Assembly (NCBI GenBank): GCA_039028615.1
Contig: JBCCHT010000082.1
Location: forward strand, 1 to 17,200
Reading direction: 5' to 3'
Length of the DNA: 17,200 nt
Source of the DNA: Myxococcota bacterium
GTDB taxonomy: Bacteria; Myxococcota_A; Polyangia; Nannocystales; Nannocystaceae
In this document: positions 3 through 15,377 of the stretch, piece after piece
How positions within the stretch are numbered: the first letter of the stretch is position 1
How the letters are laid out: each line of letters opens with the position of its first letter
Program-made: the position numbers and the translations under genes
Notes under the pieces: generated by a model
What the model saw: the letters and a program-made list of their open reading frames with translations, nothing else
The model's database searches: none
Told to the model about the DNA's origin: nothing

Positions 3-437
3 GCCTATCGAGCGCTGGCGCAGCAGCGCCCCGACGCCTTCACCCCCAACCTCGCTACCGCGCTCAACAACCTCGGCGCGATGCTGGACGCGCTAGGACG
101 GAGAGAGGAGGCGCTCACCGCCACCCAGGAGGCTGTCCACCTTCGCCGAGCGCTGGCGGAGCAGCGCCCCGACGCCTTCACCCCCAACCTCGCCAGGTCG
201 TTCGGAGTCCTGGGCTCAGTCTTCATGTCTGCCAACCGGCACGCTGAAGCCCTCGACACATTCGCTCGAGGCCTCCGATTGGTACTTCCTTTCTACGAGA
301 GATTTCCGACAGCATTTGCCGGTCTTTTACAGTTCCTCGCGAGAGGTATCCTCAAGGCAGCACAAGCAGGCAACCTCGCCATTGCCAAAGACCTTCGCCC
401 ACTAGTTGAATCGCTGAGCGATGCGACCACGGACTAA
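3..437 (+). CDS. TPR-repeat protein, C-terminal part (5' end outside the window)
   Basis: The frame is open from position 3: AYRALAQQRPDAFTPNLATALNNLGAMLDALGRREEALTATQEAVHLRRALAEQRPDAFTPNLARSFGVLG. This is a 46-aa TPR-like unit with the LA..LNNLG..L..LGR.EEAL pattern. It stops at TAA 435-437. The ATG at 81 is internal. Confidence 0.9.
   Translation, partial: AYRALAQQRPDAFTPNLATALNNLGAMLDALGRREEALTATQEAVHLRRALAEQRPDAFTPNLARSFGVLGSVFMSANRHAEALDTFARGLRLVLPFYERFPTAFAGLLQFLARGILKAAQAGNLAIAKDLRPLVESLSDATTD
9..193 (+). repeat. Intragenic direct repeat encoding consecutive TPR units
   Basis: 9-55 and 147-193 (CGAGCGCTGGCGsAGCAGCGCCCCGACGCCTTCACCCCCAACCTCGC) match at 46 of 47 nt, offset by 138 nt (46 codons). 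Confidence 0.9.
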
Positions 438-545
438 CTCCTGACCTAACTCTCCGAATTCCGCACCTGCGCACCGATTTGCGCTGCCCCACCTTTTCCG
501 ATCTACTACCACCAACGATGGACGAGGCGCTCGGGACGGCGCCTC

Positions 546-1724
546 ATGACCTTCCGACACTTCCGAACCGACGACCCGACCAACCCAGCGTCCGATAGCC
601 ACTCGCGCCTGCTCGAGCGGCTACTCATCCGCCACGCGGCCGAGGGTCTCGATGTCCTCGAGCTTCGTCGCCAGATGGGCAAGAACGGCTACGTGCCCAC
701 CGAGCATCGGTGGGAGAACGATGGCAATGGCGAAGACCTGACCGACGAGGACGGCAACGTCCTGCTGATCGCGGGTGTCCCTCCGGCCGACCTCGCTGCC
801 GAACTCATCGACACGGCACGGCAGCACGTTGACGAGACGAACGAGCGCAAGAACTACCGCTTGGTCGCGCTACGCACGACCGAGGGCATCGACGGAGGCG
901 AAGAGCAGGAGGAGGTGTTCCGTTTCCTGCTCCCGGCCACGATGTTCGGAGCGGTCGGCGACGGCACTCCGCCTTCGGAGTCACGCGAGCAGCACGATGC
1001 GTTGATGGCCGCCAACCATCAGCTCCAGCGCCAGAACGACATGCTGTTCCGAATGCTGATGGACGTCGTGCGCCAGTACCCAGTGGTGCTGGGCAAATCG
1101 ACCGAGCTGCTCGAACAACTCGGTGACCAGCTCGGCGGCGGACGCCAGCAGGACTTGCAGCAAGTCCTCTCCATTCTCGAGTTCGAGTCCGGCCGTGACC
1201 AGCGCTGGATGGCGCACGACCGCGCGAAACAGCGAGCGGGGCATCGCGCCGACCTGCTGGGCAAGTCGGTCGCGGTGGCGGGGCCCGACCTGATGGTGCT
1301 CCTGCGCAAGCTCGTCGAAGAGCTGATGGCCGCGAGCAAGAACACCGCCAATGTCGATCCCAGCGCAGACGCGTCGACCCGTGAGCAGAGCCACCACCCC
1401 AACACCGTCAACGCCTCGGAGACTACCGTGAACCGAACCGCTCGCTACGCCGACCGTCTCAACCAGTTGCTCTCTCGTGTGCCCGCCCCGGGTATCGCGA
1501 AGGCTCGGAAGCTGCTCGACGAATACGAATGGGCCCTGCTCGAGGCGGCGCGACGAGCCGAGAGCGACGACGAGTTCGCAGCCATCATCGCCAAGCTCAC
1601 CGAAGGCTGGACGGCGCAGGGCGAGGCCAAGACCGAGGCCCGGATGGCCGGGCTCATCGACGCCCTCGGTATGTCGTCCGCGATGGCCCTGGGCAAGCTC
1701 ATCGAGGAGGTCCAGGCCGGCTGA
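546..1724 (+). CDS. Hypothetical protein (392 aa), largely helical with a coiled-coil-like middle
   Basis: Long ORF with GC-rich third codon positions. Heptad-like segment QHDALMAANHQLQRQNDMLFRMLMD. No recognisable motif. First gene of a + strand operon. Confidence 0.8.
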   Translation: MTFRHFRTDDPTNPASDSHSRLLERLLIRHAAEGLDVLELRRQMGKNGYVPTEHRWENDGNGEDLTDEDGNVLLIAGVPPADLAAELIDTARQHVDETNERKNYRLVALRTTEGIDGGEEQEEVFRFLLPATMFGAVGDGTPPSESREQHDALMAANHQLQRQNDMLFRMLMDVVRQYPVVLGKSTELLEQLGDQLGGGRQQDLQQVLSILEFESGRDQRWMAHDRAKQRAGHRADLLGKSVAVAGPDLMVLLRKLVEELMAASKNTANVDPSADASTREQSHHPNTVNASETTVNRTARYADRLNQLLSRVPAPGIAKARKLLDEYEWALLEAARRAESDDEFAAIIAKLTEGWTAQGEAKTEARMAGLIDALGMSSAMALGKLIEEVQAG

Positions 1725-1776
1725 CGGCTGGCTCGGACTGCGTTCTTCAACACCACGAATCAGACGAGACACGACC

Positions 1777-2019
1777 ATGAGTACGAACACCAATAGCGAC
1801 GAACAGGACACCGTCGAGATCGACCCGCCCTATGTCTGCGAGACCTTCGGCGCCAGCGCGGCCGAGGAAACCCGCATGCAGAAGTGGCTGAATATCCAGG
1901 CCCGCAAGAGCTACCGCCTGGTCGACCGCGCTGTGCTGGCCAGCGGTGGCACGGACAAGCGAATCAGTTGCGTGATGGAGCGTCGGCCTGCTGCGACGCC
2001 GAGCGAGGGGGCAGCGTGA
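1777..2019 (+). CDS. Small protein (80 aa), DUF4177-like
   Basis: ATG at 1777 within the 1477..2019 ORF. The pattern PYVCETF...EETRMQKWLNIQARKSYRLV...ISCVMER resembles DUF4177 (Y-x-V...E..LN..G..GW.LV...F.R) by eye. Its stop overlaps the next ATG (TGATG, 2017-2021). Confidence 0.6.
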   Translation: MSTNTNSDEQDTVEIDPPYVCETFGASAAEETRMQKWLNIQARKSYRLVDRAVLASGGTDKRISCVMERRPAATPSEGAA

Positions 2020-2591
2020 TGGAAGCGTTGCATCAAGGGGCTTCGATCGCACTGTTGCTCGCGGGCGTCGCTGCGGCGCTGCTGGGCCTCTCCGCTCTTT
2101 GGTGGGTCGCAGGGCGCGTGCGGACCAGCGACGGAGAGCTGGCGCTCCAACGCGACCGCTACGAGCAGAGCAAGGTCCGTCGTCAGGAGCGAGTGAGGAC
2201 CGAGCAGCAGCGGATCGAGCTCGTACGAGGGCTACTGCCTGCCGCGACCGCCTTGGTGGGGCACTGGCTTGGCAATCGCAGCGCACAGGCCGGGACCGGG
2301 TTGCCACCGTCTCTGCGGTTCGGCCGCGACGATGGGCCAACATTCGACCCACCGTCTCCTCGCCGCCCGCGACCTGAGCCCGAGCTGCCCGATGAGGGCC
2401 CGCCGAGCCTCAGTCGCCCACCCGCGGACGAGGAGACCCAGATCGAGCTCGACCTACCGTCGATGCTCGCGGCGCTCGAGGAGGCCGGCTTCGGCGATTG
2501 GATCGCCTCCGTCATGCGTGCGGCCAAGGCCTCGTCGACGGTCACGCTCACCCAGCCCAAATCCGAGACCGCCGACGCCGTGGCTGCGTGA
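2019..2591 (+). CDS. Hypothetical membrane-anchored protein (190 aa)
   Basis: ATG 2019 is coupled to the previous stop. N-terminal TM IALLLAGVAAALLGLSALWWVAG, charged coiled segment, Pro-rich linker and a small C-terminal helical region. Confidence 0.7.
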   Translation: MEALHQGASIALLLAGVAAALLGLSALWWVAGRVRTSDGELALQRDRYEQSKVRRQERVRTEQQRIELVRGLLPAATALVGHWLGNRSAQAGTGLPPSLRFGRDDGPTFDPPSPRRPRPEPELPDEGPPSLSRPPADEETQIELDLPSMLAALEEAGFGDWIASVMRAAKASSTVTLTQPKSETADAVAA

Positions 2592-2595
2592 GGCC

Positions 2596-2967
2596 ATGAC
2601 CGAGACTCGACTCCAACGAGCGATGGCCAAGGCCCAGGTTGCCCTCGAGGTCGACGCCGATGCGCCACGGACCTCGCCCGCTCGCGGTCGGGGTCTCGGT
2701 CTTCACGATTTCCTTCTGACCAGGCGGGTCGCCCTCGAAGCCGACCTTCCCTCAACCCTCGTCCATCGTTCCACCCGGCGACGAGGGCTGCCCGACCTGG
2801 TCGACCCTTCTTCTCTCGCGTTGCTCGAGCGGCTCCAGGCCGTCGCGAAGCAGCTGGCGCACGGCGGCACCGCGGAGCTGGTGCAGCGCGTGCGCGACTC
2901 GGGACATCGGCGACGGGCCAGGCTGCTCGAGAGCGGGAACGGGTCAGAAGGCGTGCCCAAGGTATGA
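2596..2967 (+). CDS. Hypothetical basic protein (123 aa)
   Basis: ATG 2596 lies 4 nt after the previous stop (MTETRLQRAMAKAQ...). Its stop overlaps the next start (ATGA, 2964-2967), so it fills the operon gap exactly. Confidence 0.6.
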   Translation: MTETRLQRAMAKAQVALEVDADAPRTSPARGRGLGLHDFLLTRRVALEADLPSTLVHRSTRRRGLPDLVDPSSLALLERLQAVAKQLAHGGTAELVQRVRDSGHRRRARLLESGNGSEGVPKV

Positions 2968-4622
2968 GCAAGGAATCCCCTGCAGACGAGACTGTGTCGG
3001 CGGAGCCGACAGCGCGTCTGGAGTACGTCGACGTGGTGACGGGCGCCCCTGCGCCAGCGAGCGAACGGGGCACGCTGTCCACGGGCCGGGTGGTGGCGGA
3101 CATCGATGGTGAGACCGTCGAGATCGATGAGGAGGATCTGCTCGGTCCGGGCACTGACTCCGATCCCCGGAAGCGTCGCTATCGCTTCGATCATGACAGC
3201 CCCGAGAACTACACGGGCCAAGCGAAAGCCAAGAAGGCCGCACGGGCGAGCAAGAAGGCGCCCAGGAAACAAGCGAGCAAGGTCGGGCTGCGCCGCACCT
3301 TCGACTCCGCGACCAAGGCAGCGGCTCAGTTCTACGAGAACAACGCTGACTACTTTGACCACGTCCACGACCCCTGGGATGGTCTGCGGGACTGGATGGA
3401 TGGCATCGAAGTTCGGGTGGGGCGCTCGGCCAAGCACCGCAAGCTGTCCCAAACCTCCGCAGGCAAGCGCATCCTTCAGCAGAAGCATGCGGCGGCTGCG
3501 ATTCGAGGTGCCCTTGCTTATCTGTTTCGCAAGGCGAAGGGGCGAAAGTGGGAGGACATCCCGTGGGACCAGGTTGATCGGCTCGGTGAGGCGCTCGAGC
3601 GGTACTACGAGGCGCCCACGAGCGGGTCCGGGCAGCCCACGATCTACTGGCAGCCCTTTGCCGGGACGGTCCGTGCCGAAGACCTCGATGCGATGACGCC
3701 CGAGCAGCGCGAGGCCGTTCGAGTCCAGGAAGCGACTCGGGAGATCGGGGAGCAACTCGAGGATCTGCGGGAGGCCTACAGCCGGGCCAAGGGTTGCCTA
3801 CCTTCAGACGTTCGGCGAGTGATCACGCGGCGCATGGCCGAGTGGTCGAGGTGGGTGCAGGACCCGACCATGATCCCCAGCTATGCGTGTGAGCCCGATC
3901 CGAAGACTGCCGGCTACTTGTGCAACTACCCCTCGGTGGCGGGGGAACTCGCCGAGCTGAAGCGGTCATGCGAGGACGCCTACGACCCCGATTGGGCGGC
4001 GGCGCAGAGCAAGCAGGGGGCGGCTGGGTTTCCAGATACCAGGCATGGCGAAGACGAACTGCCACGAAAAGAGGTGGCCTCGGCCAAGGCCTGCTGCTCG
4101 AGCCGCACCAGCAAGCCGGCCACAGCCAAGGAGCCTCCGCGCAGCCGACGAAAACGCAGCGCCATCAAGCGCCCGAGGCAGAAGGCCGCGGAGCGTCGGG
4201 TTCGCCGACTCCAATGCTCGGCCGCTGCTGCGAAACACGAAGCCGAGACAATCGACACCCAGCCGTACCGGGACCGGGTCAAGGCCACGGCCGCAGCGAT
4301 CAAAGAGGCAAGACGCCGCATCAAAGAGCAAGAACGCCAACTTGCGGCCATCGTGCGTGAGGCCGCCACAGTTACCCGTGACAAAGGCACGACGCCCAAG
4401 GAGCGCCAAAGTGCACGCCAGAGCGTAACGAAGGCGCGCTGCGAACTCCGCATCGCTCAGAGCGCCCTACGACAACGTCGACGAGATCACCAACGCGCTC
4501 AGACCGAACTGAGCCGCGCCATCGCCCGGGTCAAACGCCGCGAGGCCGTGGCCGATAAACGTCAACGCGCAGTTGCCCGTGCGAGGGCCGAGGCCAGCGC
4601 TCTGAAACCCGGCAACTCGTGA
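2964..4622 (+). CDS. Hypothetical protein (552 aa) with a long Arg/Lys-rich coiled-coil C-terminus
   Basis: Acidic N-terminus, Lys/Ala patch AKAKKAARASKKAPRK, Trp/Tyr-rich central region with a Cys cluster (YACEPDPKTAGYLCNYP...RSC), and roughly 180 aa of very basic helical tail. Confidence 0.8.
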   Translation: MSKESPADETVSAEPTARLEYVDVVTGAPAPASERGTLSTGRVVADIDGETVEIDEEDLLGPGTDSDPRKRRYRFDHDSPENYTGQAKAKKAARASKKAPRKQASKVGLRRTFDSATKAAAQFYENNADYFDHVHDPWDGLRDWMDGIEVRVGRSAKHRKLSQTSAGKRILQQKHAAAAIRGALAYLFRKAKGRKWEDIPWDQVDRLGEALERYYEAPTSGSGQPTIYWQPFAGTVRAEDLDAMTPEQREAVRVQEATREIGEQLEDLREAYSRAKGCLPSDVRRVITRRMAEWSRWVQDPTMIPSYACEPDPKTAGYLCNYPSVAGELAELKRSCEDAYDPDWAAAQSKQGAAGFPDTRHGEDELPRKEVASAKACCSSRTSKPATAKEPPRSRRKRSAIKRPRQKAAERRVRRLQCSAAAAKHEAETIDTQPYRDRVKATAAAIKEARRRIKEQERQLAAIVREAATVTRDKGTTPKERQSARQSVTKARCELRIAQSALRQRRRDHQRAQTELSRAIARVKRREAVADKRQRAVARARAEASALKPGNS

Positions 4623-4632
4623 TCGGCAGCCG

Positions 4633-6162
4633 ATGCGACTGACGGAAGACGACGAGATGTGGGTCGGCGTCGACGACTACTGGTCGTCGCGCGTCATCTC
4701 GCCTGCGCTGCTCGACGCCGCCCGTGGTGATCGCTCCCTGTGGCCAGACATGGCCGCGAGGATCTCCAGCTTCGATGCCAACGCGTTGGTCGGTGCACGA
4801 GCCTGGGCCGCAGCGGAACGCACCTCGATGCTCTTCCAGGGCACGGGAGCACTCGGGCTGCCCGCGAACGCACTGGCCGACGTAGCGCAAGCGCTGGGGC
4901 CTCTGGTGATGGCCCCACCCGAGGACGTCGGCGCCCTCTTCGAGACGCTCGCACGAACCGGAGTCGGAGTGGTGGTCGACGCGCTGGGGGCCATCCCGAT
5001 CGTGGGCGTCATTGCCAAAGCGATCGGCGCGATGGGCCTGTTCGCGTGGGACATTTCCAAGCGAAGCCAGCAGGAGGCGCAGGAACGGCTGCCGCCCCCC
5101 CAGGTGTACAACCGAAACACCGAGGAGTACGTGATGAACACGCAGCTCCTGCCCGCGCTTTCGACCAACGACTGGACCGGCCTGTTCCTACCGCGCATCG
5201 CCAACGAACGACGAGTTCGCGAGATCGAGACTGGTTGGCTCCTCGACTCCCCAAGCGGGGGGCCCGGGCTGGGCTTCATCCCCGGCACCCAGCAGATCAG
5301 CAGCGCGACCCAAGCGTTGTGGCACAAAAAGTCGAGTCGCCCCGGAGGCTCACTCGCGTCTCACCAGGACATCGGTGACTTCTTCCCCGGGCCCGCTCAG
5401 CTGATGACGGCCATCGATCAGCAGGTGCAGCGCCCAGGCGCCGAAATGTGGGCCGTCGATCCATCGCGAGTGCGCAGGGCTTGGCGTGACTACGTCGATG
5501 CCACCAGGACTTTCGCGTACGAGCTGTACGTCGGCCATGGCCTCGCCGGCTCGGGGCTCCAGGCGCTCAACGAAGAACACCGTCGCCTCATCGTGCAGCA
5601 ACTCGTCGCCCCGCTGCACGTATCGCGAATCGGCGACGAGCTCCATCGCGGCATCTTGTCCGCCAACTCCTGGACGCCGAAGAACCCTCCCGACGATATC
5701 GCGGAAGCCTTCGTCGATCCGTGGTGCGACCGGATGCAGCAGCGACAGGACCACTACCTGGGGACCATCGCGGTAGCCTACGCCGATCCTCGCAGCGTGG
5801 CATTCGGGGCCAACGCGAGGCTCCGAGACAAGCTGATGAGGATGCGCAAGCTCCTGCTGGAGAGCCCTGCCCGCTACGACGTCGACCAACGAGACGTCAT
5901 CGACAGCGAGTACCGCAGAGCGCTGTTTGAATCGACTGCAGGTGGTCAGTTCAAGGCCCCTGATCAGGCTTCGCCCGGAAACGTGCCGGGCCTCGATGGC
6001 GACGACACGGAACCCGAGCCTCCACGACCGCCTCAGGGCGGTCCACCGCTCCAGGTGTACGTGGCGGAGTTGACCGATGGAGGCAGTGGCGGGCTCTTGC
6101 TCGGGCTGGGCCTGCTCGGGTTGCTATGGGCGGCGCAGCGGGGCCTCAAGCGCCATCGGTGA
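4633..6162 (+). CDS. Hypothetical protein (509 aa) with an internal hydrophobic hairpin and a C-terminal membrane anchor
   Basis: Segment TGVGVVVDALGAIPIVGVIAKAIGAMGLFAW, Pro-rich linker EPEPPRPPQGGPP, C-terminal GGSGGLLLGLGLLGLLWAAQRGLKRHR. No N-terminal signal peptide is evident. Confidence 0.8.
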   Translation: MRLTEDDEMWVGVDDYWSSRVISPALLDAARGDRSLWPDMAARISSFDANALVGARAWAAAERTSMLFQGTGALGLPANALADVAQALGPLVMAPPEDVGALFETLARTGVGVVVDALGAIPIVGVIAKAIGAMGLFAWDISKRSQQEAQERLPPPQVYNRNTEEYVMNTQLLPALSTNDWTGLFLPRIANERRVREIETGWLLDSPSGGPGLGFIPGTQQISSATQALWHKKSSRPGGSLASHQDIGDFFPGPAQLMTAIDQQVQRPGAEMWAVDPSRVRRAWRDYVDATRTFAYELYVGHGLAGSGLQALNEEHRRLIVQQLVAPLHVSRIGDELHRGILSANSWTPKNPPDDIAEAFVDPWCDRMQQRQDHYLGTIAVAYADPRSVAFGANARLRDKLMRMRKLLLESPARYDVDQRDVIDSEYRRALFESTAGGQFKAPDQASPGNVPGLDGDDTEPEPPRPPQGGPPLQVYVAELTDGGSGGLLLGLGLLGLLWAAQRGLKRHR

Positions 6163-6457: not shown

Positions 6458-6551
6458 CCGCTGGGAGCCTACCCGAGGTGACGAGCCGCCCGGAAGCTCA
6501 TCGGAGCTCGAGTTCGTCCGCCGAGCCTTTCCGGGACGATATCCGAGCCCT

Positions 6552-6791
6552 TTACTCATGACCGCCCACAGACAACTCGGGCGACTCCTCATCGTCGGCG
6601 ACGAAAACTGAGTGGCGTCCCGCCGGTTCCGGGGTAAACCTGATGTGTGCCCCCTTGGGCTCAAGTAGTAGGTCGACACCAAAGCCCAAAAAGACGGCAG
6701 TAACTGTCGCGACACCTACAAACGTTATAAAGACGGCCAGCAGTTGGTACCGCAGTGCGGTCCGTAACGATGTATGATTGAGATTCTCCAT
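6552..6791 (-). CDS. Small membrane protein (79 aa)
   Basis: ATG 6791 is preceded by GGAGGGGTT (RBS-like) and lies 16 nt after the stop of the wHTH gene. TM LLAVFITFVGVATVTAVFLGFGV and an acidic tail. Confidence 0.65.
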   Translation of the reverse strand: MENLNHTSLRTALRYQLLAVFITFVGVATVTAVFLGFGVDLLLEPKGAHIRFTPEPAGRHSVFVADDEESPELSVGGHE

Positions 6792-6807
6792 AACCCCTCC
6801 TTGTTTG

Positions 6808-7575
6808 CTATGCGATAAGCGAGATGATCTTTGCGCTACGCTTGCGGCCGGGCGCGAACGGTGCACGCAATGTGAAATGTCGCGCTTGCGTGTAGCCCTT
6901 GGGCGCCAATGGCATCTTTTGGTACGCAATCGCAACGTTGATGAGGCCGGCCTCCCCAAGGGCGGCCAACCCTCTCTGCACGGTATCAGGCGAGACGCCA
7001 TACCAGTCGGGCCCCCGCTCCACGGGTAGCTTAAAACCATCGGATAGACTGAGCGCGATGAGAAACGCGACCTTCGCTGGCATCTTCAACCGCTGAGCCC
7101 AACCTTCCTCCCAGTACTCGTACGGCAGCTTGAAATACGACTCACGCTTGTCCTTAGGATGCTTGTAGGGAGCCGCGGTGCCACCCTCGTCGAGCAAAGT
7201 AATCTGACACCGACCACGATGGCGTTTGCGTTGAATGAGGCGAGCGTCTTCGAGTCGCTTCAGAACCTTCGAAACGGCGGACGCCGAACTCTTGGCCCCG
7301 CGCCCATCAGGCAACCCCAGCGCCCGTGCCCAGGCACTCGCTGCCAGGGTTACATCGTACGGCTCCGCGCTCGCCGCGGCGTGCACGAGGAGGTATTGAT
7401 CAAGTCCTCGTTCGTCACCACGACGAACAAGACCTGCGAGCGGCCCGGGAATGCGCTTGGCGCTCTTGCCCTGTTGTAGGAACGACCGCCGGATCGGCAC
7501 GAAGCGCCGCTTGGAGCGCTTCAGGAGCGCGTCTATGGTCTCCTGCTGAGTCACCGCTGGTGGTCTGTTGTCCAT
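6808..7575 (-). CDS. Tandem winged-helix DNA-binding protein, putative replication-initiator-like or mobile-element regulator
   Basis: Two wHTH-like motifs: WARALGL...SAVSKVLKRLEDARLIQRKRHRGRCQITLL and PDWYGVSPDTVQRGLAALGEAGLINV. The protein is basic. Start uncertain (ATG 7575, or 7620/7623). The Rep function is inference. Confidence 0.7.
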   Translation of the reverse strand: MDNRPPAVTQQETIDALLKRSKRRFVPIRRSFLQQGKSAKRIPGPLAGLVRRGDERGLDQYLLVHAAASAEPYDVTLAASAWARALGLPDGRGAKSSASAVSKVLKRLEDARLIQRKRHRGRCQITLLDEGGTAAPYKHPKDKRESYFKLPYEYWEEGWAQRLKMPAKVAFLIALSLSDGFKLPVERGPDWYGVSPDTVQRGLAALGEAGLINVAIAYQKMPLAPKGYTQARHFTLRAPFAPGRKRSAKIISLIA

Positions 7576-7620
7576 GACGTTCAACTTGACCGGAGATAGA
7601 CGGATTGTCGAACTTTGCAT

Positions 7621-7719
7621 CACCGTGTAAGTCAGCTCTGAGTTACCGTTTCAGCGGCACCTTTACTAGTTCCGTTTAAGTTCCAAGTGCAAGATCCCTG
7701 TGCAAGAACCAAGTACTAG
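7621..7719. repeat. Imperfect 11-13 bp tandem repeat array (iteron- or operator-like)
   Basis: CACCGTGTAAG (7621), TTACCGTTTCAG (7643), CACCTTTACTAG (7658), TTCCGTTTAAG (7670), TTCCAAGTGCAAG (7681), ATCCCTGTGCAAG (7694), AACCAAGTACTAG (7707). The last five are contiguous and the last three have a 13-bp period. Confidence 0.6.
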
Positions 7720-7817
7720 ACCCAGTTCGCATCTCAACCAACAAGCGACGAAGACAGGCCTGCCCAGCGGGGGGTCGATTGGGGCTCGGCCGCAAGCGCT
7801 CACTTTGTACCTGAGGC

Positions 7818-7848
7818 AAAAAAAACTTCCGCCGTGCCCTGGAGGAAG
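7818..7848 (-). terminator. Putative intrinsic terminator
   Basis: The minus strand reads CTTCCtCC-AGGGCAC-GGcGGAAG-TTTTTTTT: a 7-bp stem with one mismatch followed directly by U8. Confidence 0.55.
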
Positions 7849-8025
7849 CCGCCCCCGAGTTCGCTTCCCTGGTCGCAGAACAACCCCCCGGGTTCGATTT
7901 CGACCTCTGGTGGGCCCCAAACCGCGGTGCTACGCCTGGGACCAGTGGTGGAGACAACGGATACGGTGGAGGTACATCGACCGGAGCAGGTGGGCGTAGA
8001 ACCGCTTTCGGTGGACTTCGAGGCC

Positions 8026-8397
8026 ATGGAGCTGTGGGTTCACGGCGGTCGATCGCTGTTCTCGCGGGGCGAGCTACCCACCATGCGACAGGCGATGACC
8101 GCAGCTCGCCGAGTGCTCCTGCAAATGTCGATGACACGCCAGCGAGGCAACATCAGCGCGGTGGCGCGAGCGCTGGGGATGAGTCGTCGAGCGGTTCGGG
8201 AGCACCTCAAGAAAACGGGCCTGTACGAACGCGACCCGGCAAGCTCGCCTCTCTCCGAGTTTGCCGCTCCGTCACACGATCATCAACGTGAAGCTTGCAG
8301 CACCGATTGCCAGCCCTGCGGCCAAGAGCACGCTCAGCCAAATCCACCGTTGGCGACCCCGAACCTCGTGAGCCCCGTCTGCTCGCGAGGATCGTAG
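8026..8397 (+). CDS. Stand-alone Fis-type (HTH_8) DNA-binding protein
   Basis: RRVLLQMSMTRQRGNISAVARALGMSRRAVREHLKKTGLY is a Fis/NtrC C-terminal HTH pattern. Start uncertain (ATG 8026 or upstream GTGs near 7945-7966). The tail overlaps the convergent kinase gene by 126 nt. Confidence 0.75.
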   Translation: MELWVHGGRSLFSRGELPTMRQAMTAARRVLLQMSMTRQRGNISAVARALGMSRRAVREHLKKTGLYERDPASSPLSEFAAPSHDHQREACSTDCQPCGQEHAQPNPPLATPNLVSPVCSRGS

Positions 8398-9336
8398 CGT
8401 CTCGAGCAGGGCCTCCATCCCGTGGAATCGCTTGCTCGGATCGAAGGCCAGGCCCTTGCGCAACGCAACGACCCATCCGAGTCCGGGAGCGACCCCTTCC
8501 GGCCACTCCACCCGGCCCCTTCGCATGGCATCCAACATCTCTGGCGCAGTGTCGCCGCCGAAGGGTCGCATCCCGAACAGAGCTTCCCATGCCGTCACGC
8601 AGAAACCGAACTGGTCGCAGGCCGGGTTGATCTGGGCGCTGGAGAACTGCTCGGGCGCCATGTAGGCGGGCGTTCCGACGACCGATCCGGGTCGGGTCAG
8701 CGTGCCCTGCTCGAACGCTGCGAACGGCACAACGCCTGCCATGGTCTCGGCGTCGCTCTTGGGCTCTTCGCGGCCCTGAACCCGAACCAAGCCGAAGTCC
8801 GCGACGCGGACGCGCCCGTCGTCACCAATCAAGACGTTGCTGGGCTTGAAATCTCGATGCACGAGGCCAGCCCGATGAGCGGCGGCTAAGCCCTCCCCTG
8901 CTTGCAGCAGCAGATCATGCACAACCTCGAGGCGACCTGGCCGACCCAACGGGTGCTGCCTCAGCCAGTCCCGCAAGGTCTGCCCTTCCACGAACTCCAT
9001 GGCGACGAAGAGCCGCCCGTCGTGCACTCCCACATCGAATACCGCCACGACGTTGGGATGGGACAAGCGAGCCAGCGCCTGAGCCTCCCGAATCAAACGA
9101 GGGTCGTAGCCGGGGTTCTGCCCCTCGTGCAGCACCTTGAGTGCAACCCGGCGATCCAGTCGCGGATCGTAGGCCGCATACACCTGACCCATTCCCCCGG
9201 ACCCGATGCACCGGAGCACGAGGAATCGGCCGACCGTTTCACCCGGCCGTATGCGAAGAACGGCCCCGTCGGTTCTACCCTCGGGGCACGCTCGAGCAGT
9301 CCGAGTCGTCTCGAACACAGAATCCAACGGGTCCAT
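8272..9336 (-). CDS. Hanks-type Ser/Thr protein kinase with a C-terminal TM helix (354 aa)
   Basis: GSGGMG, VALKVL, REAQAL..LSHPNVV, HRDFKPSNVL, DFGL, GTPAYMAPE and DQFGF are all present. It ends RQRWIWLSVLLAAGLAIGAASFTLMIV. Confidence 0.95.
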   Translation of the reverse strand: MDPLDSVFETTRTARACPEGRTDGAVLRIRPGETVGRFLVLRCIGSGGMGQVYAAYDPRLDRRVALKVLHEGQNPGYDPRLIREAQALARLSHPNVVAVFDVGVHDGRLFVAMEFVEGQTLRDWLRQHPLGRPGRLEVVHDLLLQAGEGLAAAHRAGLVHRDFKPSNVLIGDDGRVRVADFGLVRVQGREEPKSDAETMAGVVPFAAFEQGTLTRPGSVVGTPAYMAPEQFSSAQINPACDQFGFCVTAWEALFGMRPFGGDTAPEMLDAMRRGRVEWPEGVAPGLGWVVALRKGLAFDPSKRFHGMEALLETLRSSRADGAHEVRGRQRWIWLSVLLAAGLAIGAASFTLMIV

Positions 9337-9390
9337 CCTTGCCTAGGTGGTTGTGAGGGCCGGGCCAAACGACGCGTTTTCACTTCCAGG

Positions 9391-9750
9391 CTAGGGGAAC
9401 ACTGAGACAGATGGCTCCGATCCTTCCACGAGCGGGAACCGCATCTCGGAGTTCGACCGAGGACCGTCCTTTGGCGTCCGAACCTCGGCCAGGTCCCTGC
9501 GCACGCGCCTACGAGTCGTCCTCAGGAGTGCGGCCACCTGCGAGATGTTGTCCCCTTGGGATTGCCACACACGAACGACGATCAGTCGCTCGGCAGCACG
9601 AAGGAGCTCGAGCAACGAAGACCGTTCGAACCGCGACGCGATCCTCTCGACCCTTCGGCCGATCTCGGCCCACTGCTCCGAGAAACTCGGCTCGAGGACT
9701 GGTTCAGATGTGCCCGGATCGTTGTGGCTGGTCGTGTACTGGTTGGTCAT
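9391..9750 (-). CDS. Stand-alone Fis-type HTH protein (119 aa)
   Basis: ATG 9750. AAERLIVVRVWQSQGDNISQVAALLRTTRRRVRRDL aligns without gaps to the Fis-type HTH of the other two HTH proteins in the window. Confidence 0.7.
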   Translation of the reverse strand: MTNQYTTSHNDPGTSEPVLEPSFSEQWAEIGRRVERIASRFERSSLLELLRAAERLIVVRVWQSQGDNISQVAALLRTTRRRVRRDLAEVRTPKDGPRSNSEMRFPLVEGSEPSVSVFP

Positions 9751-9763
9751 GGAAGTACCGCAG

Positions 9764-9779
9764 AGCAAGCGGCGTTCCG
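9764..9779 (-). promoter_or_regulatory. Putative sigma54 (-24/-12) promoter
   Basis: Minus strand CGGAACG-CCGC-TTGCT versus consensus TGGCACG-N4-TTGCW. GG-N10-GC spacing is exact. It ends 13 nt before ATG 9750. Confidence 0.65.
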
Positions 9780-9831
9780 GCGATCGAGACCAACAGAATT
9801 CAGTAGGTTGAGAGAAGAACGAGCCTGGCGG

Positions 9832-9869
9832 TTGTGCCCGATGGCACAGGAGCTGCGCCCTCGAGTACG
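9832..9869. promoter_or_regulatory. Putative tandem upstream activator sequences (bEBP enhancer)
   Basis: TTGTGCCCGATGGCACA (9832-9848) contains the perfect inverted repeat TGTGCC-N4-GGCACA, i.e. TGT-N10-ACA. A degenerate copy CTGCGCCCTCGAGTACG (9853-9869) lies 21 bp away. Confidence 0.6.
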
Positions 9870-9929
9870 ACACGTTGGATCGTCGCAGCCCAGCGGAAGC
9901 GGTACCGTAACGCCCAGTTCGCCAAGTCG

Positions 9930-11441
9930 CTACGGAACGTCGGCGCCCGGGACATCCACGGAGCCGTCGATCTCGGGCCGCAGGTCGCCATCGATGTCGA
10001 CCACCGGATCGCCTTGCTGCCAGCGCCCGGCGTTGACCAGAGCCGCAGGCACCAAGCCCAGGTGGAAGTCGCCCCCCGCGAAGTCGGAGAACCAGCCGGT
10101 GTCCATAGGGCCCAGCGCGGTATTGGAGCCGCCGAGGTCAGCCTCGGTTGCGCTGTCGTCCACCGTCGCGCCGCTGCACTGGAGTTCGGGGTCGTTCGTG
10201 CGCGCCACGAGAACCGAGTTGCGGATCTCTACGGTGGAGCCGCCATCGCAGGTCAGGGCTGCCGCGGAGCCGAAGCCGCTGCCAAGGGTGGAGTAGAGCA
10301 CGGTAGCCGTCGTGCCCACGAGTTCAACGCTGGTGCGATCGTTGACGTCTCCGCCGAGGAACGCGTTGCGTGTGACCAGTTCGGCGCTGGCCTCGGCCAC
10401 GATCGCTCCACCTGCATTGCCGACGATCCGACTACGATCGAGCCAGACTCGGCCCCCGACGACCCGGAGTGCTGGATTGTTGGTGGCGTCGTTGCCCGAG
10501 AGCGTCAATCCGTCGAGGAGCACCGTGGCATCCCCGACGTCGAGCTGCGACTCGCTCGACAGCCCCGGCGGCCGCCACGTCGGCTGACCGCCGTCAGCCG
10601 CTCGGAATGCAACGACGTTGCCACCGCTCAGGGTCACGGCTTCGTCGTACACGCCGCCGTGCACGACAATCGTGCCCTCCGCCCCAACCTCGAAGCTGTC
10701 CAAGGCAGCCATCAGCGAGCCGAAATCCTGCCCCGGGCCGACGTGCACCACCGCGTCGGGTGGGAGGCAGGCTCCCGTGAAGAGGTTGCAGGCCGCCTCG
10801 CCGCACTGTGCGTGGGCGGTACATGCAACGCAGGAGTTGGCTTCATCGTCGCAGACGGGCGTCTCTCCTTCGCATGCATCCGGGGTTGCGCCAGTGCACT
10901 CAACACATTGGTCGTCGAGGCACACAGGCAGGCTCGAATCGGCCGATGCACATGCCGCGTTGGGGTCGTCGGTGGCACCGCACGCAACGCATTCGCCTGA
11001 CGCAGGCACGCAGAACGGGGCGTCCTCGTTCATGCAGTCCGTGTTCTCGGTGCACGGCCGCGAGCCGGTCGTGGTCGGCTCGTCCGTCTCCTCGCTGCCC
11101 TCGGAGCCGGAGCCCAAAGTTGCCTCGGAGGTCGTGCCGCCCGTCGTGCCTCCGTCGACGCAGCTCGGGTCTTCAGACAGCGACAGACCCCCGCCGCACG
11201 GACTGTAGCAGGCGTCGTCCTCTGGACGCTGCTCTACGCAGCCATCGCGGCCAGGTGTCGACCCACAGGTACCGCGAGCGCAATACGAACGAGAGCCGTC
11301 CGAGTAGCGAATGGCACACCAGGCATCGCCATCCTGATTCGCACAATGGTCGGCATTCAGGACGGACTGGGCCTCCGGGGCACACGAAACGGCCAGACCC
11401 AGCGCGAAACCAGCGGAGGCAAAGATCGGGGTACGAGGCAT
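9930..11441 (-). CDS. Surface lipoprotein: Cys-rich domains plus a right-handed beta-helix (pectin-lyase-like fold) with a choice-of-anchor-Q-like end (503 aa)
   Basis: Lipobox LAVS-C, N-terminal Cys domain, Thr/Ser/Glu linker, and Cys repeats (C..N.DC....PFC....GECVAC) resembling myxobacterial Cys-rich stalk repeats. Beta-helix cap VHVGPGQDFGSLMAALD...IVVHGGVYDE, then LDGLTLSGN, RIVGNAGGAI, IRNSVL. C-terminal DFHL...LVNAG...DIDGDLRP...DVPGAD. Confidence 0.85.
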   Translation of the reverse strand: MPRTPIFASAGFALGLAVSCAPEAQSVLNADHCANQDGDAWCAIRYSDGSRSYCARGTCGSTPGRDGCVEQRPEDDACYSPCGGGLSLSEDPSCVDGGTTGGTTSEATLGSGSEGSEETDEPTTTGSRPCTENTDCMNEDAPFCVPASGECVACGATDDPNAACASADSSLPVCLDDQCVECTGATPDACEGETPVCDDEANSCVACTAHAQCGEAACNLFTGACLPPDAVVHVGPGQDFGSLMAALDSFEVGAEGTIVVHGGVYDEAVTLSGGNVVAFRAADGGQPTWRPPGLSSESQLDVGDATVLLDGLTLSGNDATNNPALRVVGGRVWLDRSRIVGNAGGAIVAEASAELVTRNAFLGGDVNDRTSVELVGTTATVLYSTLGSGFGSAAALTCDGGSTVEIRNSVLVARTNDPELQCSGATVDDSATEADLGGSNTALGPMDTGWFSDFAGGDFHLGLVPAALVNAGRWQQGDPVVDIDGDLRPEIDGSVDVPGADVP

Positions 11442-11443
11442 GA

Positions 11444-12247
11444 TCAGAAGCGTCCCTGGATGCGTAGACCGGTGAGCCTGGGGCCAACCGAGGGTCCGAC
11501 CGAGACCCGGGCTGGGCGATGACGTAGCACGGCTAGGTCGATCGCGAGCATGGTGGCTCCGACGGCCACTCCTGCAACGCCCACACCCACCCAGGCGCGG
11601 CCTTGCGGGCCGAAGTCGTGGCGGATCTCGCGTTCCTCGTCGCTTGGATCGGAACTGAGAACGTCGCCACGACGGACGCGGCTGATGCCGAAACCGAGGC
11701 CTCCGAGGCCTCCGGCCGCAACGATCATCCCGGTGATGCCGACGGGGCCGATCGGTGGCCGACGGTGATTGGGCTGCTCGGAGGGTCTCGTTGGAGAAAC
11801 GTCCGAGCTTGGCTCGGGTTCATCTCGAGGAGTCGTGCCCGGTTCGGGCTCGGCCGGCGGTGGTTCGTCCAGTTGCTCGAGGGCCGCGGGCAGTCGCTCG
11901 AGCACGGCTTCGCTCACCCCCGAGTCGATGCATGGACACTCAATGCTCTCGAGCATCTGCGGTTTCTCCCCCGGGCGCCGGGTCTCGATGTCGATGCGGT
12001 AGATCGAGGCCTCATAGTCGACCCAGGAGAGCGTGACCACGATCGTTGGAGCGGCCGCTTCCTCGGTCACACCGACGTCGTGAACACCTTTGAGGGCTCC
12101 GACTCCATCTTCGCGAACGTACGCTGCGGTCTCCTCGGCAGCGGAGGCATCCTGATGCCGAAGGAGCGGTGTGGGGTCGACCTCCAGTGCCACCTGCTCA
12201 GGGCTTGCCGCGAGAGTCAGAGCGGCGGCAAAGAGAGACGGGATCAT
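11444..12247 (-). CDS. Exported protein with a Pro-rich linker, two Gly-rich hydrophobic segments and a C-terminal beta-strand ending in Phe (267 aa)
   Basis: Signal MIPSLFAAALTLAA, segments IGPVGITGMIVAAGGLGGLGFGI and AWVGVGVAGVAVGATMLAIDLAVL, and terminal VSVGPSVGPRLTGLRIQGRF. The start overlaps the upstream stop (ATGA). Confidence 0.8.
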   Translation of the reverse strand: MIPSLFAAALTLAASPEQVALEVDPTPLLRHQDASAAEETAAYVREDGVGALKGVHDVGVTEEAAAPTIVVTLSWVDYEASIYRIDIETRRPGEKPQMLESIECPCIDSGVSEAVLERLPAALEQLDEPPPAEPEPGTTPRDEPEPSSDVSPTRPSEQPNHRRPPIGPVGITGMIVAAGGLGGLGFGISRVRRGDVLSSDPSDEEREIRHDFGPQGRAWVGVGVAGVAVGATMLAIDLAVLRHRPARVSVGPSVGPRLTGLRIQGRF

Positions 12248-13839
12248 GGCTGCCCTCGATCGAGTTGGCGGTCGCAGTGAACGGCCATGCGCCGGGCTTC
12301 GGGGTCGGCCGAAGCTTCGCCCAGCTTCACGCAGTCGTTGAACCGTCCGAGTTCGGAGAGAGCCTTGATCCGCATTCGTGTGTAGGCCACCGGGTCGTCC
12401 CAGCAGCGGCGCGTTCTGGTCAGCTCAGCGACTTGCCGCCATTGTCGCGCTTTCCGAGCCGCGGACGCTCGCTCGAGGGTCTCAGGGCAGGGATCGACCT
12501 CCCTCGGCACGGATGCCGAATGAGGCTGGGACCTACGCTTGGATCGGCGAGGGCGTGACGGCGGTGCGGCCTCTGTGGGCGGAGGAATAACCACAGGCTC
12601 CGTAGCGGGCGTGACCGGCTCCGCAGGAGCAGGGGGGTTTCGAGGGGGCTGTTCGGTATTGAAACCGGCGGTGGGCTGTCGCGAGGGTTCTGCGGCAGCG
12701 CGGGGTGACGTCACGGGACTCTCCGCCAACTCAACGCCCACACCTCGCTCCTCGCTCCCGCTCCGCGAGTGCAACCACCACCCGAGGGCCCCCGCTGCAA
12801 CTACGACCGCCACGCTCACGATGAGAAGCACACGTCGCCGTGGCCTCGCCAAATCGATCGAGTGTCGATCGAACGGCTTCGTCGTGACCAGGGAGTCGAC
12901 GCTGGCCTCGTTCGCCGCAACCGCCTGCTCGCCGCTCTCGACCGCGGCGGTCATCACCACGAGCTGCTCGTCGAGCCGCCGCACGACCTCATCCATCGTG
13001 GGTCGTCGCTGAGGCTCGGTCGCGACGCAAGCATCCACGAGCTCGGCCAGGGCCAGCGGCACCGCGTCGTACACTCGAGTATCGATCCGCGGAGGCCGTA
13101 GCTGTCCTTGGCCCTGCAGCTCGATGAACGTGGCGTCATCGCATCGCCCGGGTGCCACCCCCGTGAGCATGTGGACGAGCATCACGCCAAACGCGTAGAC
13201 ATCCATTGCCGCACGGGCTGGCTCGGCTCGAGCTTGCTCCGGGGCCATGAAATGAGGCGTACCCGGGACCTCGTTCATCCGGGTCAACCGCTGCTGGCCG
13301 TCCGAAGGACCTCGAGGCGCCGCGATCTCGCTGGCATGGCTGAGATCGATGAGCACCGCGTTCCCGTCTGCGACGAGCACGTTCATCGGCGTCACGTCGC
13401 GATGAGCAATGCCTCTGCGATGCAGAGCTTGAACCGCCCCCGCCACCTGCCGTGCGAGCCGCGTCGCCTCCGGCGGCGGCAACGGGCCGCGGGCGAGCCG
13501 ACTCCCCAGATCGCGCCCCGGCACCAACTCCATCACCAAGAACGGCCACGCGAAGTCGTGCAGCCGTCCGCCGTCGAGATAGTCGACGAGGTTGCGGTGT
13601 GGTTCGACGCACCGCCCCAGGTCGAGTTCCTGCAGGAATCGTTGCTCCCGCTCGGGTCGGCCCAGGTAGCGCGGAACGATGAGCTTGAGCGCGACCTCGC
13701 GCCCGAGCCGGAGGTCACGGGCCCGGAACACTTGCCCCATGCCCCCCGAACCGAGAGTCCCGAGCAGTTCGAAGCGTCGGTCGAGCACCTGGCCCACTGA
13801 CGGCAACACCGGTCTGGCTGCTTTCTGAGCGGCGCTCAC
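12244..13839 (-). CDS. Transmembrane Ser/Thr kinase with atypical catalytic motifs (531 aa)
   Basis: GSGGMG, VALKL, RFLQE, HRDVTPMN, DLS in place of DFG, GTPHFMAPE, DVYAFG. TM VLLIVSVAVVVAAGALGWWL, Pro-rich linker and a four-Cys helical C-terminal domain. The GTG start overlaps the upstream TGA. Confidence 0.92.
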   Translation of the reverse strand: MSAAQKAARPVLPSVGQVLDRRFELLGTLGSGGMGQVFRARDLRLGREVALKLIVPRYLGRPEREQRFLQELDLGRCVEPHRNLVDYLDGGRLHDFAWPFLVMELVPGRDLGSRLARGPLPPPEATRLARQVAGAVQALHRRGIAHRDVTPMNVLVADGNAVLIDLSHASEIAAPRGPSDGQQRLTRMNEVPGTPHFMAPEQARAEPARAAMDVYAFGVMLVHMLTGVAPGRCDDATFIELQGQGQLRPPRIDTRVYDAVPLALAELVDACVATEPQRRPTMDEVVRRLDEQLVVMTAAVESGEQAVAANEASVDSLVTTKPFDRHSIDLARPRRRVLLIVSVAVVVAAGALGWWLHSRSGSEERGVGVELAESPVTSPRAAAEPSRQPTAGFNTEQPPRNPPAPAEPVTPATEPVVIPPPTEAAPPSRPRRSKRRSQPHSASVPREVDPCPETLERASAARKARQWRQVAELTRTRRCWDDPVAYTRMRIKALSELGRFNDCVKLGEASADPEARRMAVHCDRQLDRGQP

Positions 13840-15116
13840 GACGGACTCTCCTCTTCGGGTGTGTCAGCCTCTGCCGCCTCGCTCTCACCGACTGCGGGTA
13901 GGTGCCGTACTCCGGCCGACGGATCAAGCGCGAAACGTCGTCGCCGTCGCTGAACCAGAGGAGCGTTGGGCTCGGGCCCTGTGGAGGCAGGATCGAAGCG
14001 TTGGGTTGGAACCTCATCATCGGGGTGCAGCCACGGTGATGCCCCTGGCTCCCCCGCCTCGAGTTCCTGCTCCCGTGAAATCTTCACCGTCATGCGGGCC
14101 GACTCTGGTGGAGCTGCGGGCAGGCCCTGCGGAACCTCGACACTGCGAGTCTCCCCATCATCGAGCAACGCCTCCGCAGCCTCCTCGATCTTCGTCATTC
14201 CCGAGCGTGGCTTGCCGACGAAGCGCCGATACAGCTCGGAGAGTACCCGCGTACCCTTCCGATAGCCCGGCCATGCGTCGATGAGCGTCAACGCATCGTC
14301 GGCAGTCGCGATGCGCCGCTCGAGGGCAGGCTCGAGGCCCATGCTTCGGAGCTTCTCGAGCGCGGCCGGCACGTCTTCACGCGAAAGTCCGGGCGGAGGT
14401 GCGTCGAGGATCCGCTGGAGTTCCCCCACCGAAGTCACCTCGCGCGGAGCCTCGCCTGCCAGCATGAAGTGCAGCACCCCGGCCGCACCGTAGATGTCGC
14501 TCTCGAAGCACGCCTCGCCGCGAGCCTGCTCGGGAGCGATGTACTTGAGCGTCCCGAATGCCTCGTCCGAAAGGTCCGCCTCGTAGCGAGCGATCCCAAA
14601 GTCGGTCAGGAACACCTCGCCCTCGGACGAGATCAGCACGTTGCTCGGCGTCACGTCGCGATGGATGACACCTCGGGGCTTCCCGGCCACCGTCCGATTG
14701 TGGGCATGCCGCAGCGCCTCGAAGACCTCCCCTATCACATAGCCCACCGCAGCCAGAGGCAGGCGCTCTCCCTCGTCCGCCAGTGCCCGACAGAACCTCG
14801 CCAGGTCGATCCCATCGACGAACTCCATCACCAGGTACAGGTGCCCGTGCGCTTCGCCGAAGTCCTGCATCGGCACGATTCGGCCGTGTCGCAAGCTCGC
14901 GCCGATCTGCGCCTCGCGGAAGAAACGGCGCCGATAGCCGTCGTCCAACGCGAGCCGAGGCCGGAGAATCTTGAGCACACACGGTTTCGCCAGGCCCTGC
15001 TTGTTGGCCAGCCACACCTCGCCCATGCCGCCGCTACCGATGAACTCGAGGGGCCGATACTGCCCAAGCTCGCGGGGCACGCTGGGTTCGACTTGCATCG
15101 CGTCTCGGTCCGTCAT
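13836..15116 (-). CDS. Cytoplasmic Ser/Thr protein kinase (about 426 aa)
   Basis: GSGGMG, CVLKIL, RFFREA, HRDVTPSN, DFGIAR, GTLKYIAPE, SDIYG. No TM. Low-complexity acidic tail. ATG 15116 (or 15098) is preferred over TTG 15143, which falls inside the predicted promoter. Confidence 0.93.
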   Translation of the reverse strand: MTDRDAMQVEPSVPRELGQYRPLEFIGSGGMGEVWLANKQGLAKPCVLKILRPRLALDDGYRRRFFREAQIGASLRHGRIVPMQDFGEAHGHLYLVMEFVDGIDLARFCRALADEGERLPLAAVGYVIGEVFEALRHAHNRTVAGKPRGVIHRDVTPSNVLISSEGEVFLTDFGIARYEADLSDEAFGTLKYIAPEQARGEACFESDIYGAAGVLHFMLAGEAPREVTSVGELQRILDAPPPGLSREDVPAALEKLRSMGLEPALERRIATADDALTLIDAWPGYRKGTRVLSELYRRFVGKPRSGMTKIEEAAEALLDDGETRSVEVPQGLPAAPPESARMTVKISREQELEAGEPGASPWLHPDDEVPTQRFDPASTGPEPNAPLVQRRRRRFALDPSAGVRHLPAVGESEAAEADTPEEESPS

Positions 15117-15138
15117 CGGGGGCCTACCACGACTCCGA

Positions 15139-15154
15139 AGCAAGCCGAGCGCCG
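15139..15154 (-). promoter_or_regulatory. Putative sigma54 (-24/-12) promoter of the kinase operon
   Basis: Minus strand CGGCGCT-CGGC-TTGCT with exact GG-N10-GC spacing. It shares CGG and GCTTGCT with the 9764-9779 element. Confidence 0.6.
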
Positions 15155-15199
15155 GATCGCGAACTCAATGAACCCGCGAACTTGGCGATCTCAGACGCA

Positions 15200-15244
15200 G
15201 GCGGTTGTTCCCCCGGGCGCAGCGATTGGTCCCAAGGGCACAGG
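15200..15244. promoter_or_regulatory. Putative tandem upstream activator sequences (bEBP enhancer)
   Basis: TTGTTCCCCCGGGCGCA (15205-15221) and TTGGTCCCAAGGGCACA (15226-15242), 21 bp apart. 15200-15222 matches 9827-9849 at 18/23 nt, and 15226-15244 matches 9832-9850 at 15/19 nt. Confidence 0.65.
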
Positions 15245-15345
15245 TGGCCGACTCGAGCTGCCGACTGAAGCGTGCCCGGTCGTCCGGCTGGTCTCTTGAT
15301 CGGTGGTCAGCGACGGCCCGCCATCGACACGAACTCGGCGCGCGC

Positions 15346-15361
15346 TGGGTTCCGGCGTGCT
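15346..15361 (+). promoter_or_regulatory. Possible sigma54-like promoter of the activator gene
   Basis: TGGGTTC-CGGC-GTGCT has GG-N10-GC spacing and ends 16 nt before ATG 15378. It is a weaker consensus match and could be chance in GC-rich DNA. Confidence 0.3.
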
Positions 15362-15377
15362 ATCCCCCGCCCCAGAT

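Follow-up and report, generated by a model that had tools for sequence, protein, structure and literature searches.

The window analysed here is the whole of a 17.2-kb contig (C82, JBCCHT010000082.1) from the 12.3-Mb, 68% GC genome of a myxobacterium (GCA_039028615.1, below G000; G001, G004, G005 and G027 are related genomes). Near its left end six genes, A to F, follow a conserved non-coding leader. We consider it probable that this cassette is the right arm, A to F, of a provirus, and that the provirus belongs to an apparently undescribed family of tailless viruses whose hosts are Nannocystaceae-like myxobacteria; such viruses would contain a membrane and package DNA without an ATPase. The features of the arm are:

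444-545, forward strand: conserved non-coding leader of gene A, 75% identical to the DNA upstream of A in G005:C34
546-1724, forward strand: gene A, 392 amino acids (aa), pI 5.1, acidic, coiled coil; first gene of the arm
1777-2019, forward strand: gene B, 80 aa; syntenic orthologues
2019-2591, forward strand: gene C, 190 aa, N-anchored membrane protein with a Pro-rich linker; syntenic orthologues
2596-2967, forward strand: gene D, 123 aa, pI 11.3
2964-4622, forward strand: gene E, 552 aa, pI 9.8; conserved core of ~350 aa and a basic coiled-coil tail
4633-6162, forward strand: gene F, 509 aa; marker gene of the family

A preliminary description of this DNA had presented the six genes as a translationally coupled operon. 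All six open reading frames (ORFs) and all junctions are as it described them, with a 52-nt gap between A and B, a TGATG overlap between B and C, a 4-nt gap between C and D, an ATGA overlap between D and E and a 10-nt gap between E and F; the 52-nt gap, however, does not amount to translational coupling. GC content at third codon positions is 0.75-0.84 over the six ORFs. Searches of A-F against Pfam and PHROGs returned no family of note, and rows naming CorA, DUF3093 and a terminase small subunit were dismissed as weak. D and E are indeed very basic, C has the N-terminal hydrophobic stretch of an N-anchored protein (hydropathy peak at residues 4-32), and F, described as tail-anchored, ends in a short helix (492-507) and a basic tail in its AlphaFold2 model. 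The likeness of B to DUF4177 did not survive, being a faint resemblance: Pfam PF13783 has no match for B, and in one of three B homologues it scores below the cut-off (E-value 0.094, 13.4 bits against a cut-off of 25).

Orthologues of all six genes occur in the same order in G005. A rough Nei-Gojobori estimate of the ratio of nonsynonymous to synonymous substitution rates (dN/dS), made against one G005 copy, gave 0.33 for A, 0.66 for B, 0.56 for C, 0.81 for D (the weakest constraint among the six), 0.20 for the core of E and 0.21 for F. Since gene order is kept and all ratios are below 1, we conclude that A-F are real genes rather than chance reading frames.

In three related loci (G005:C34, G005:C147 and G001:C861) a second arm of ~10 genes lies on the opposite strand and points away from the arm A-B-C-D-E-F. 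The six genes of the preliminary description make up only one arm of an element of 25-50 kb. The second arm in these relatives encodes:

a 150-aa helical protein
a 269-aa protein with a basic N-terminus and a beta-rich domain
a 282-aa beta-rich protein (250-290 aa among members)
a 143-aa protein with a Cys/His/Asp pattern, possibly transglutaminase-like
four or five singly anchored Pro/Gly-rich proteins
an amidase (PF01510, E-value 1e-11)
an anchored lysozyme-like protein

The 269-aa protein is the capsid candidate. AlphaFold2 models its domain as a single jelly roll, a 149-aa barrel with a helix after the fifth strand and a mean predicted local distance difference test score (pLDDT) of 93.8. 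A profile of the domain gathered 67 clusters at 50% identity, most of them with an Arg/Lys-rich, basic N-terminal arm and a Cys-rich linker. In structural comparison viral capsids make up the top rows, with the PBCV-1 capsid at Z 7.6 (root-mean-square deviation, rmsd, 5.0; 127 residues aligned), EhV-201 at 7.1, STMV at 6.5, HHIV-2 at 6.4, HCIV-1 at 5.8 and SPV1 at 5.4 (rmsd 4.4; 126 aligned). Foldseek against BFVD found two unnamed viral proteins, and the ESM Atlas a 132-aa viral cluster that we treat as a lead only. Neither the jelly-roll profile nor that of the neighbouring beta-rich protein matches a PDB sequence, and no profile link joins the two (E-value 0.54). As modelled, then, the relatives' second arm holds a jelly-roll protein, and its basic arm and gene context point to a capsid role. 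One further protein, P0070 (387 aa), has repeated copies of the same jelly-roll domain and is possibly a fused double form.

A search of viral databases, one of the checks proposed in the preliminary description, turned up a circular virus record that shares this backbone. This record, IMGVR_UViG_3300017989_000050, was retrieved with the E core; it is 24,870 bp long, has direct terminal repeats of 123 bp and is rated 100% by CheckV. It contains the jelly-roll gene (E-value 4e-38), five other genes homologous to members of the same arm, a lysozyme-like gene, the E core on its own (307 aa), an amidase and a repeat gene rich in Lys and Ala, read from its antisense frame; the opposite strand carries an A-like gene and, after it, F (E-value 5e-21). 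A Rep_trans-like initiator, a single-stranded DNA-binding protein (SSB), an MT-A70 methyltransferase and many small early-type genes are also present. In 28 selected ORFs of the record we found no Pfam or PHROG match to an integrase, terminase, portal or HK97 capsid and no Pfam match to FtsK-HerA, and none of its frames of at least 120 aa has a Walker A motif; one 118-aa ORF has weak matches to virion-structural and minor-tail families. The ORFs of the window likewise have no Pfam or PHROG match to an HK97 capsid, portal or terminase, which speaks against membership in the Caudoviricetes. On a 34.9-kb JGI contig, the 21 kb covered contain the same arm together with numerous small genes.

F serves to trace the family. 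Its sequence alone finds matches in 12 of 61 related genomes; with an F profile the figure for the host family is 38 of 73, at 1-15 matches per genome (matches are not copy numbers), and the 11 genomes of one genus give none. Three of five other genomes of the window's own genus have F. The hosts are myxobacteria, and named homologues come from Nannocystaceae, which we accordingly take to be the host family. Copies within G005 are 76-97% identical to one another over the element and unrelated outside it. The patchy, multi-copy distribution and the unrelated flanks indicate a mobile element rather than core genes, and they answer one of the two objections foreseen in the preliminary description, that the homologues might be syntenic single-copy core genes. 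The other, that the genes might never co-occur with each other or with mobile-element markers, is answered by the neighbourhoods, where integrases, the jelly-roll protein and lysins are found together with them. Within 25 kb of 33 F matches we counted an integrase at 17, a lysozyme-like gene at 22, an amidase or M23 gene at 15, a gene in the capsid position at 20 (including two clusters with no significant link to the folded protein), an A-like gene at 16 and a giant protein at 17, many of the stretches ending at contig or fetch limits. The preliminary description had proposed looking in such neighbourhoods for a jelly roll, an integrase or a packaging ATPase: the first two are there, and neither the loci nor the virus record that we examined yielded a packaging ATPase.

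The integrases are of the tyrosine type (PF00589), an excisionase also occurs, and several copies lie beside transfer-messenger RNA (tmRNA) or tRNA genes. On G027:C220 the 3' 23-mer of the tmRNA gene is repeated 49.7 kb away, as an attachment (att) repeat. Integration by a tyrosine recombinase and a circular form are thus seen in relatives, and the signs of a temperate, integrating element (a tyrosine integrase and att repeats) belong to relatives and were not seen for the window copy. G027:C220:46593-133694 holds three related proviruses on one 138-kb contig, of which the tmRNA-att-bounded copy is one. Element cores have no conserved gene with a Walker A motif, as a VirB4 or coupling ATPase would have, and no relaxase family occurs among the proteins scanned, which speaks against an integrative conjugative element; Walker-A-like strings in some element genes are Gly-, Lys- or Cys-rich artefacts.

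Both F and the core of E are new conserved domains. F consists of a hydrophobic helical hairpin (about residues 100-142), a folded core (155-435), a Pro-rich linker and a C-terminal anchor, and its alignment conserves the hairpin, a G-x-x-P-G motif, the linker and the anchor. AlphaFold2 is confident for 155-435 and gives the hairpin low confidence. Fold searches with F reached at best Z 4.8, and Foldseek against BFVD gave no match; since the model exceeds 400 residues, this does not prove a new fold. The F profile has no match among PDB sequences, and the ESM Atlas returned unnamed viral clusters at 0.79-0.87, below our bar and useful as leads only. In a quick tree, whose deep branches are not resolved, F of the window clusters with its counterparts from G005 and G001. 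This layout makes F a candidate entry or membrane protein of the virion.

Homologues of E in relatives range from 695 to 2813 aa. In G005:C34, G005:C147 and G001:C861 they measure 1080-2813 aa and carry DUF3560 and repeated modules ahead of the same core; the DUF3560 matches have E-values of 1e-20 to 1e-26, and forms bearing the domain span 1004-2813 aa. E relatives also have a weak LPD29 match, and the core matches no Pfam family. The relatives thus join several unrelated domains in one large polypeptide, as polyvalent proteins do, and E is the invariant core of such a giant protein. The window's E is core and tail with no added domains; because shorter forms of 695-782 aa occur as well, it need not be broken. 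Other element types have a methylase-SNF2 protein instead of the giant E, and an M23-like gene instead of the amidase. Beside these, a metagenomic member (L093:9899-20172, Ga0180432_10000278) has an M23-like gene between two giant E-like proteins of 1405 and 1263 aa, and at L088:2718-7214 and L095:10286-12322 tandem beta-rich genes follow E, vary between members and are candidate spike or receptor-binding proteins.

Used as a single query, A finds orthologues in 3 other genomes of 73. Weak profile links connect it to the gene at the same position in two other element types (E-value about 3e-4) and in the circular virus record (6e-4), and in relatives A diverges from the capsid arm, opening its own arm. 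Of the remaining products, C may be a membrane protein of the virion and D a DNA-condensing protein. G005:C34 (L033) has DUF4062 and restriction-endonuclease genes and a duplicated start of A between the two divergent arms, and the window's leader of A matches the DNA that follows this insertion. The region (L033:3068-7589) is a cargo hotspot between the arms, with DUF4062, an AspBHI-like restriction endonuclease and the duplicated gene-A start.

The window's own copy may be intact, an assembly gap having removed its capsid arm, or it may be a reduced derivative; we hold these two possibilities to be about even. The assembly does lose parts of such elements: two further proviruses of another type of the same family, ~95% alike in protein (G000:C10:1-12281 and G000:C64:32464-45854), each have an integrase, beside tRNA-Sec in the case of C10, and run off their contigs before the jelly-roll gene. 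In sequencing run X1, possibly from the source sample, contigs break at 543-547 and include a variant of the tetratricopeptide-repeat (TPR) gene that precedes the leader, with 12 differences in 153 nt. This may reflect a second copy of the start of A and of the TPR gene that is missing from the assembly, a weak hint of lost DNA. Depth in the run X1 contigs is flat over cassette and flank, which says nothing on induction. No G000 contig joins either end of the window; C85, with a tRNA-Asp gene, does not join either. Against an intact copy stand the lack of an integrase in the 11 kb to the right of the cassette and the occurrence in G027 of reduced copies without a capsid arm. The latter (L025, L023 and L026, at G027:C161, C192 and C92) keep A, F, an integrase and a module of kinase, extracytoplasmic function (ECF) sigma factor and helix-turn-helix (HTH) genes, and are possibly defective or satellites.

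How such a virus would work can be sketched from its genes. The provirus would excise and replicate, and the jelly-roll protein would build an icosahedral shell enclosing an internal membrane in which C, F and the rest of the anchored proteins sit. D, the tail of E and the histone-H1-like repeats, all of them basic, may condense the DNA, the particle assembling around it without a motor. At infection F, with its hydrophobic hairpin and tail anchor, might help the virion membrane to engage the host envelope, E would be carried in and released as an early counter-defence protein, and the lysozyme-like protein and amidase would open the wall.

Several observations weigh against this reading. Six-frame profile searches of G000 found no gene of the matching capsid arm, and the window has no integrase. 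No att repeat was found in the stretches covered for five other tRNA- or tmRNA-adjacent copies tested, nor by a repeat scan. The jelly-roll match is generic: all Z scores are below 8, the cellular proteins GOLD (6.4), PHM (6.3) and discoidin tie with the viral rows, and Foldseek of the model against the PDB gave nothing at an E-value of 0.001 or less. Capsid-position genes of two other element types show no significant link to the folded one (E-values 0.13 and 0.38). The putative lysozyme-like protein, so named from a sequence motif, has no Pfam match. The circular record has a Rep_trans-like protein (E-value 2e-5, below the Pfam cut-off), and it is the single related record from our IMG/VR scans, found with the E core, those with F and with a close jelly-roll alignment being empty. 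The F profile was built from 38 rows partly drawn from the genomes that it counts.

The genes could alternatively belong to a non-viral integrative element that spreads by membrane vesicles or by a particle resembling a gene transfer agent, with the jelly roll as a coat or adhesin rather than a true capsid. Many anchored membrane proteins, the missing packaging ATPase, the generic fold match, ParA in one element type and the copies that keep A, F and integrase without a capsid arm all agree with such an element. Against it stand a complete circular record that is classed as viral and contains lysin, SSB, methyltransferase and many small early-type genes, the basic N-arm of the jelly roll and a structural-arm order fixed across divergent members. 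We regard it as unlikely. The element might instead be an ATPase-less double jelly-roll virus of the FLiP or Odin kind, whose major capsid protein would be the beta-rich protein of 250-290 aa, with the single jelly roll as a penton. In size the beta-rich protein matches small double jelly-roll capsid proteins, and it shows two runs of beta-strands by eye. ATPase-less double jelly-roll groups do exist (PMC5894146); yet the beta-rich protein has no PDB sequence match, its counterpart in the circular record has no PHROG match, and it is the single jelly roll that carries the basic arm and the helix after the fifth strand. This we find quite improbable.

It is very unlikely that A-F are a domesticated host locus derived from such a virus, for instance a bacteriocin-like or predation particle kept for the host. 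Six open frames under purifying selection and a capsid arm absent from the assembly would suit that idea, but the genes are patchy within the genus, the flanks are not shared with other copies, and the host block in G004 lacks A-F; as the measured divergence is older than the insertion seen here, dN/dS is no evidence of selection in the host. The poorest candidate in our view, with hardly any weight, is a satellite using the capsid and motor of a tailed helper phage: integrases at tRNA and tmRNA sites and the lack of an own packaging motor are set against its own jelly-roll protein, its own lysins, a large membrane-protein module and the absence of terminase, portal and HK97 from the 28 ORFs of the circular record. 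We therefore retain a tailless provirus as the best explanation; the co-occurrence of the genes and the circular record also back the suggestion, made in the preliminary description, of a non-tailed, membrane-associated virus-like element or its remnant.

Comparison with known systems places the Portogloboviridae nearest in design. They have a single jelly-roll capsid protein and no packaging ATPase (PMC8812541), and SPV1 has a circular genome of ~20 kbp, a layer of lipid inside and a core of nucleoprotein (PMC8459092). The relatives share a single jelly roll, the lack of Walker A and, in one case, a circular 24,870-bp sequence with a 123-bp repeat, and the anchored and basic proteins suggest a comparable lipid layer and nucleoprotein core. 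In contrast, the host is a myxobacterium rather than a member of the Sulfolobales, and integrase, peptidoglycan hydrolases and a polyvalent protein are added; the structural match to SPV1 does not rise above cellular jelly rolls, and we found no sequence link. By analogy the element would work like a portoglobovirus, and on its host it would not be one.

Viruses of the Helvetiavirae/Singelaviria (Sphaerolipoviridae, Simuloviridae, Matshushitaviridae) are tailless, with an internal membrane, single jelly-roll capsid proteins and temperate members (PMC12642351, PMC12451622). HHIV-2 and HCIV-1 chains are among our structural rows. Helvetiavirae possess an FtsK-HerA ATPase and two major capsid proteins, each a single jelly roll (PMC8812541), whereas one single jelly roll is seen here and no Walker A was found; membership fails for want of the ATPase. 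The FLiP and Odin groups lack a packaging ATPase and sporadically have integrase and lysozyme (PMC5894146); their capsid protein has the double jelly-roll fold and genomes of the Odin group measure 7-11 kb, against one modelled barrel and elements of 25-50 kb here. Polyvalent proteins of phages and conjugative elements are giant, variable, multidomain and encoded next to virion genes (Iyer et al. 2017, PMC5512222). The E relatives with DUF3560 and weak LPD29, and the methylase-SNF2 giants of other element types, resemble them, unlike the E core, which lacks a Pfam family, and the window's E, which lacks added domains. Charybdis elements, which are marine, virus-like and without hallmark genes (bioRxiv 10.1101/2025.08.03.668216), are set apart by their description, with about 4.6 kb, archaeal hosts and a double-Greek-key protein.

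We found no description of this virus family in the literature covered, to which supplements and most subscription journals did not belong; virus catalogues could list members. The available text of a survey of myxobacterial viruses (bioRxiv 10.64898/2026.09.14.751636) does not contain 'jelly', 'non-tailed', 'Varidnaviria' or 'Nannocyst', and in the accessible part of a genome paper on a named host species prophages appear only in a figure key (PMC9960870). The jelly-roll profile had no match in 401 genomes sampled across the phylum, in a run without a positive control. Tailless temperate viruses are known, and this combination in bacteria looks undescribed.

A bolder reading, to which we give somewhat less than even weight, is that these elements form a new high-rank lineage of single-jelly-roll, membrane-containing, motor-less bacterial viruses with genomes of 25-50 kb, a bacterial counterpart of the portogloboviruses. 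Its proviruses would reside in about half of the Nannocystaceae genomes searched, invisible to prophage callers that rely on Pfam and PHROGs, and F would be its membrane-entry protein, of unmatched fold. DNA viruses with a single jelly roll and no motor have been proposed to resemble an ancestral state of the Helvetiavirae (PMC8812541). If our interpretation is correct, a tailless family that reaches 38 of 73 genomes, frequently with many copies, would constitute a major share of their mobilome that has been overlooked, and an inducible bacterial example with genomes of up to about 50 kb would make ATPase-less packaging of large genomes testable. Elements with kinase and ECF-sigma modules and defence cargo may also feed the expansion of such genes in myxobacteria.

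The cassette is flanked in the window by three further genes:

3-437, forward strand: 3' end of the TPR-repeat gene (Pfam TPR_12), cut by the contig end
6146-6454, reverse strand: gene G, 102 aa, small, lipoprotein-like (lipobox by eye), convergent on F
6808-7623, reverse strand: winged-HTH, Rep-like gene in a lower-GC patch

The TPR gene may be either hotspot cargo or host flank. Gene G is part of the element in two relatives, lying at the same position in G005:C34 and G001:C861. The low-GC Rep-like island that the preliminary description placed next to the cassette is there (GC 0.58-0.62 at 6501-8000, with the winged-HTH gene), and its protein belongs to a separate, widespread and unnamed family with at least 73 members, some of them from actinomycete records. 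No homologue of this gene was found in 20 related loci; it is probably a separate insertion and not a core part. No tRNA, terminal repeat or sigma-70 promoter was found in the window, and a simple finder detected no CRISPR array in G000.

To the right, 9391-16733 is a block conserved in the genus (Fis-HTH, a secreted protein, two kinases and an FHA sigma-54 activator). It is syntenic with G004:C5, where A-F are absent, so that the element ends to its left; in G004:C5 the homologous block comes immediately after a partial tRNA-Asp repeat. Genes for Ser/Thr kinases, ECF sigma factors and HTH proteins are repeatedly found next to or within the elements, in several copies between F and the integrase (G027 loci L021-L029; L013:3244-7115; L017:17212-20000; window 7834-9873), and the elements may spread such signalling modules. 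Elsewhere in the genome, G000:C16:218729-231617 is a separate tmRNA island that carries, by labels given by eye, an integrase, an excisionase, a resolvase-like protein, an AAA ATPase with a long protease-like protein, and an Mrr-like nuclease.

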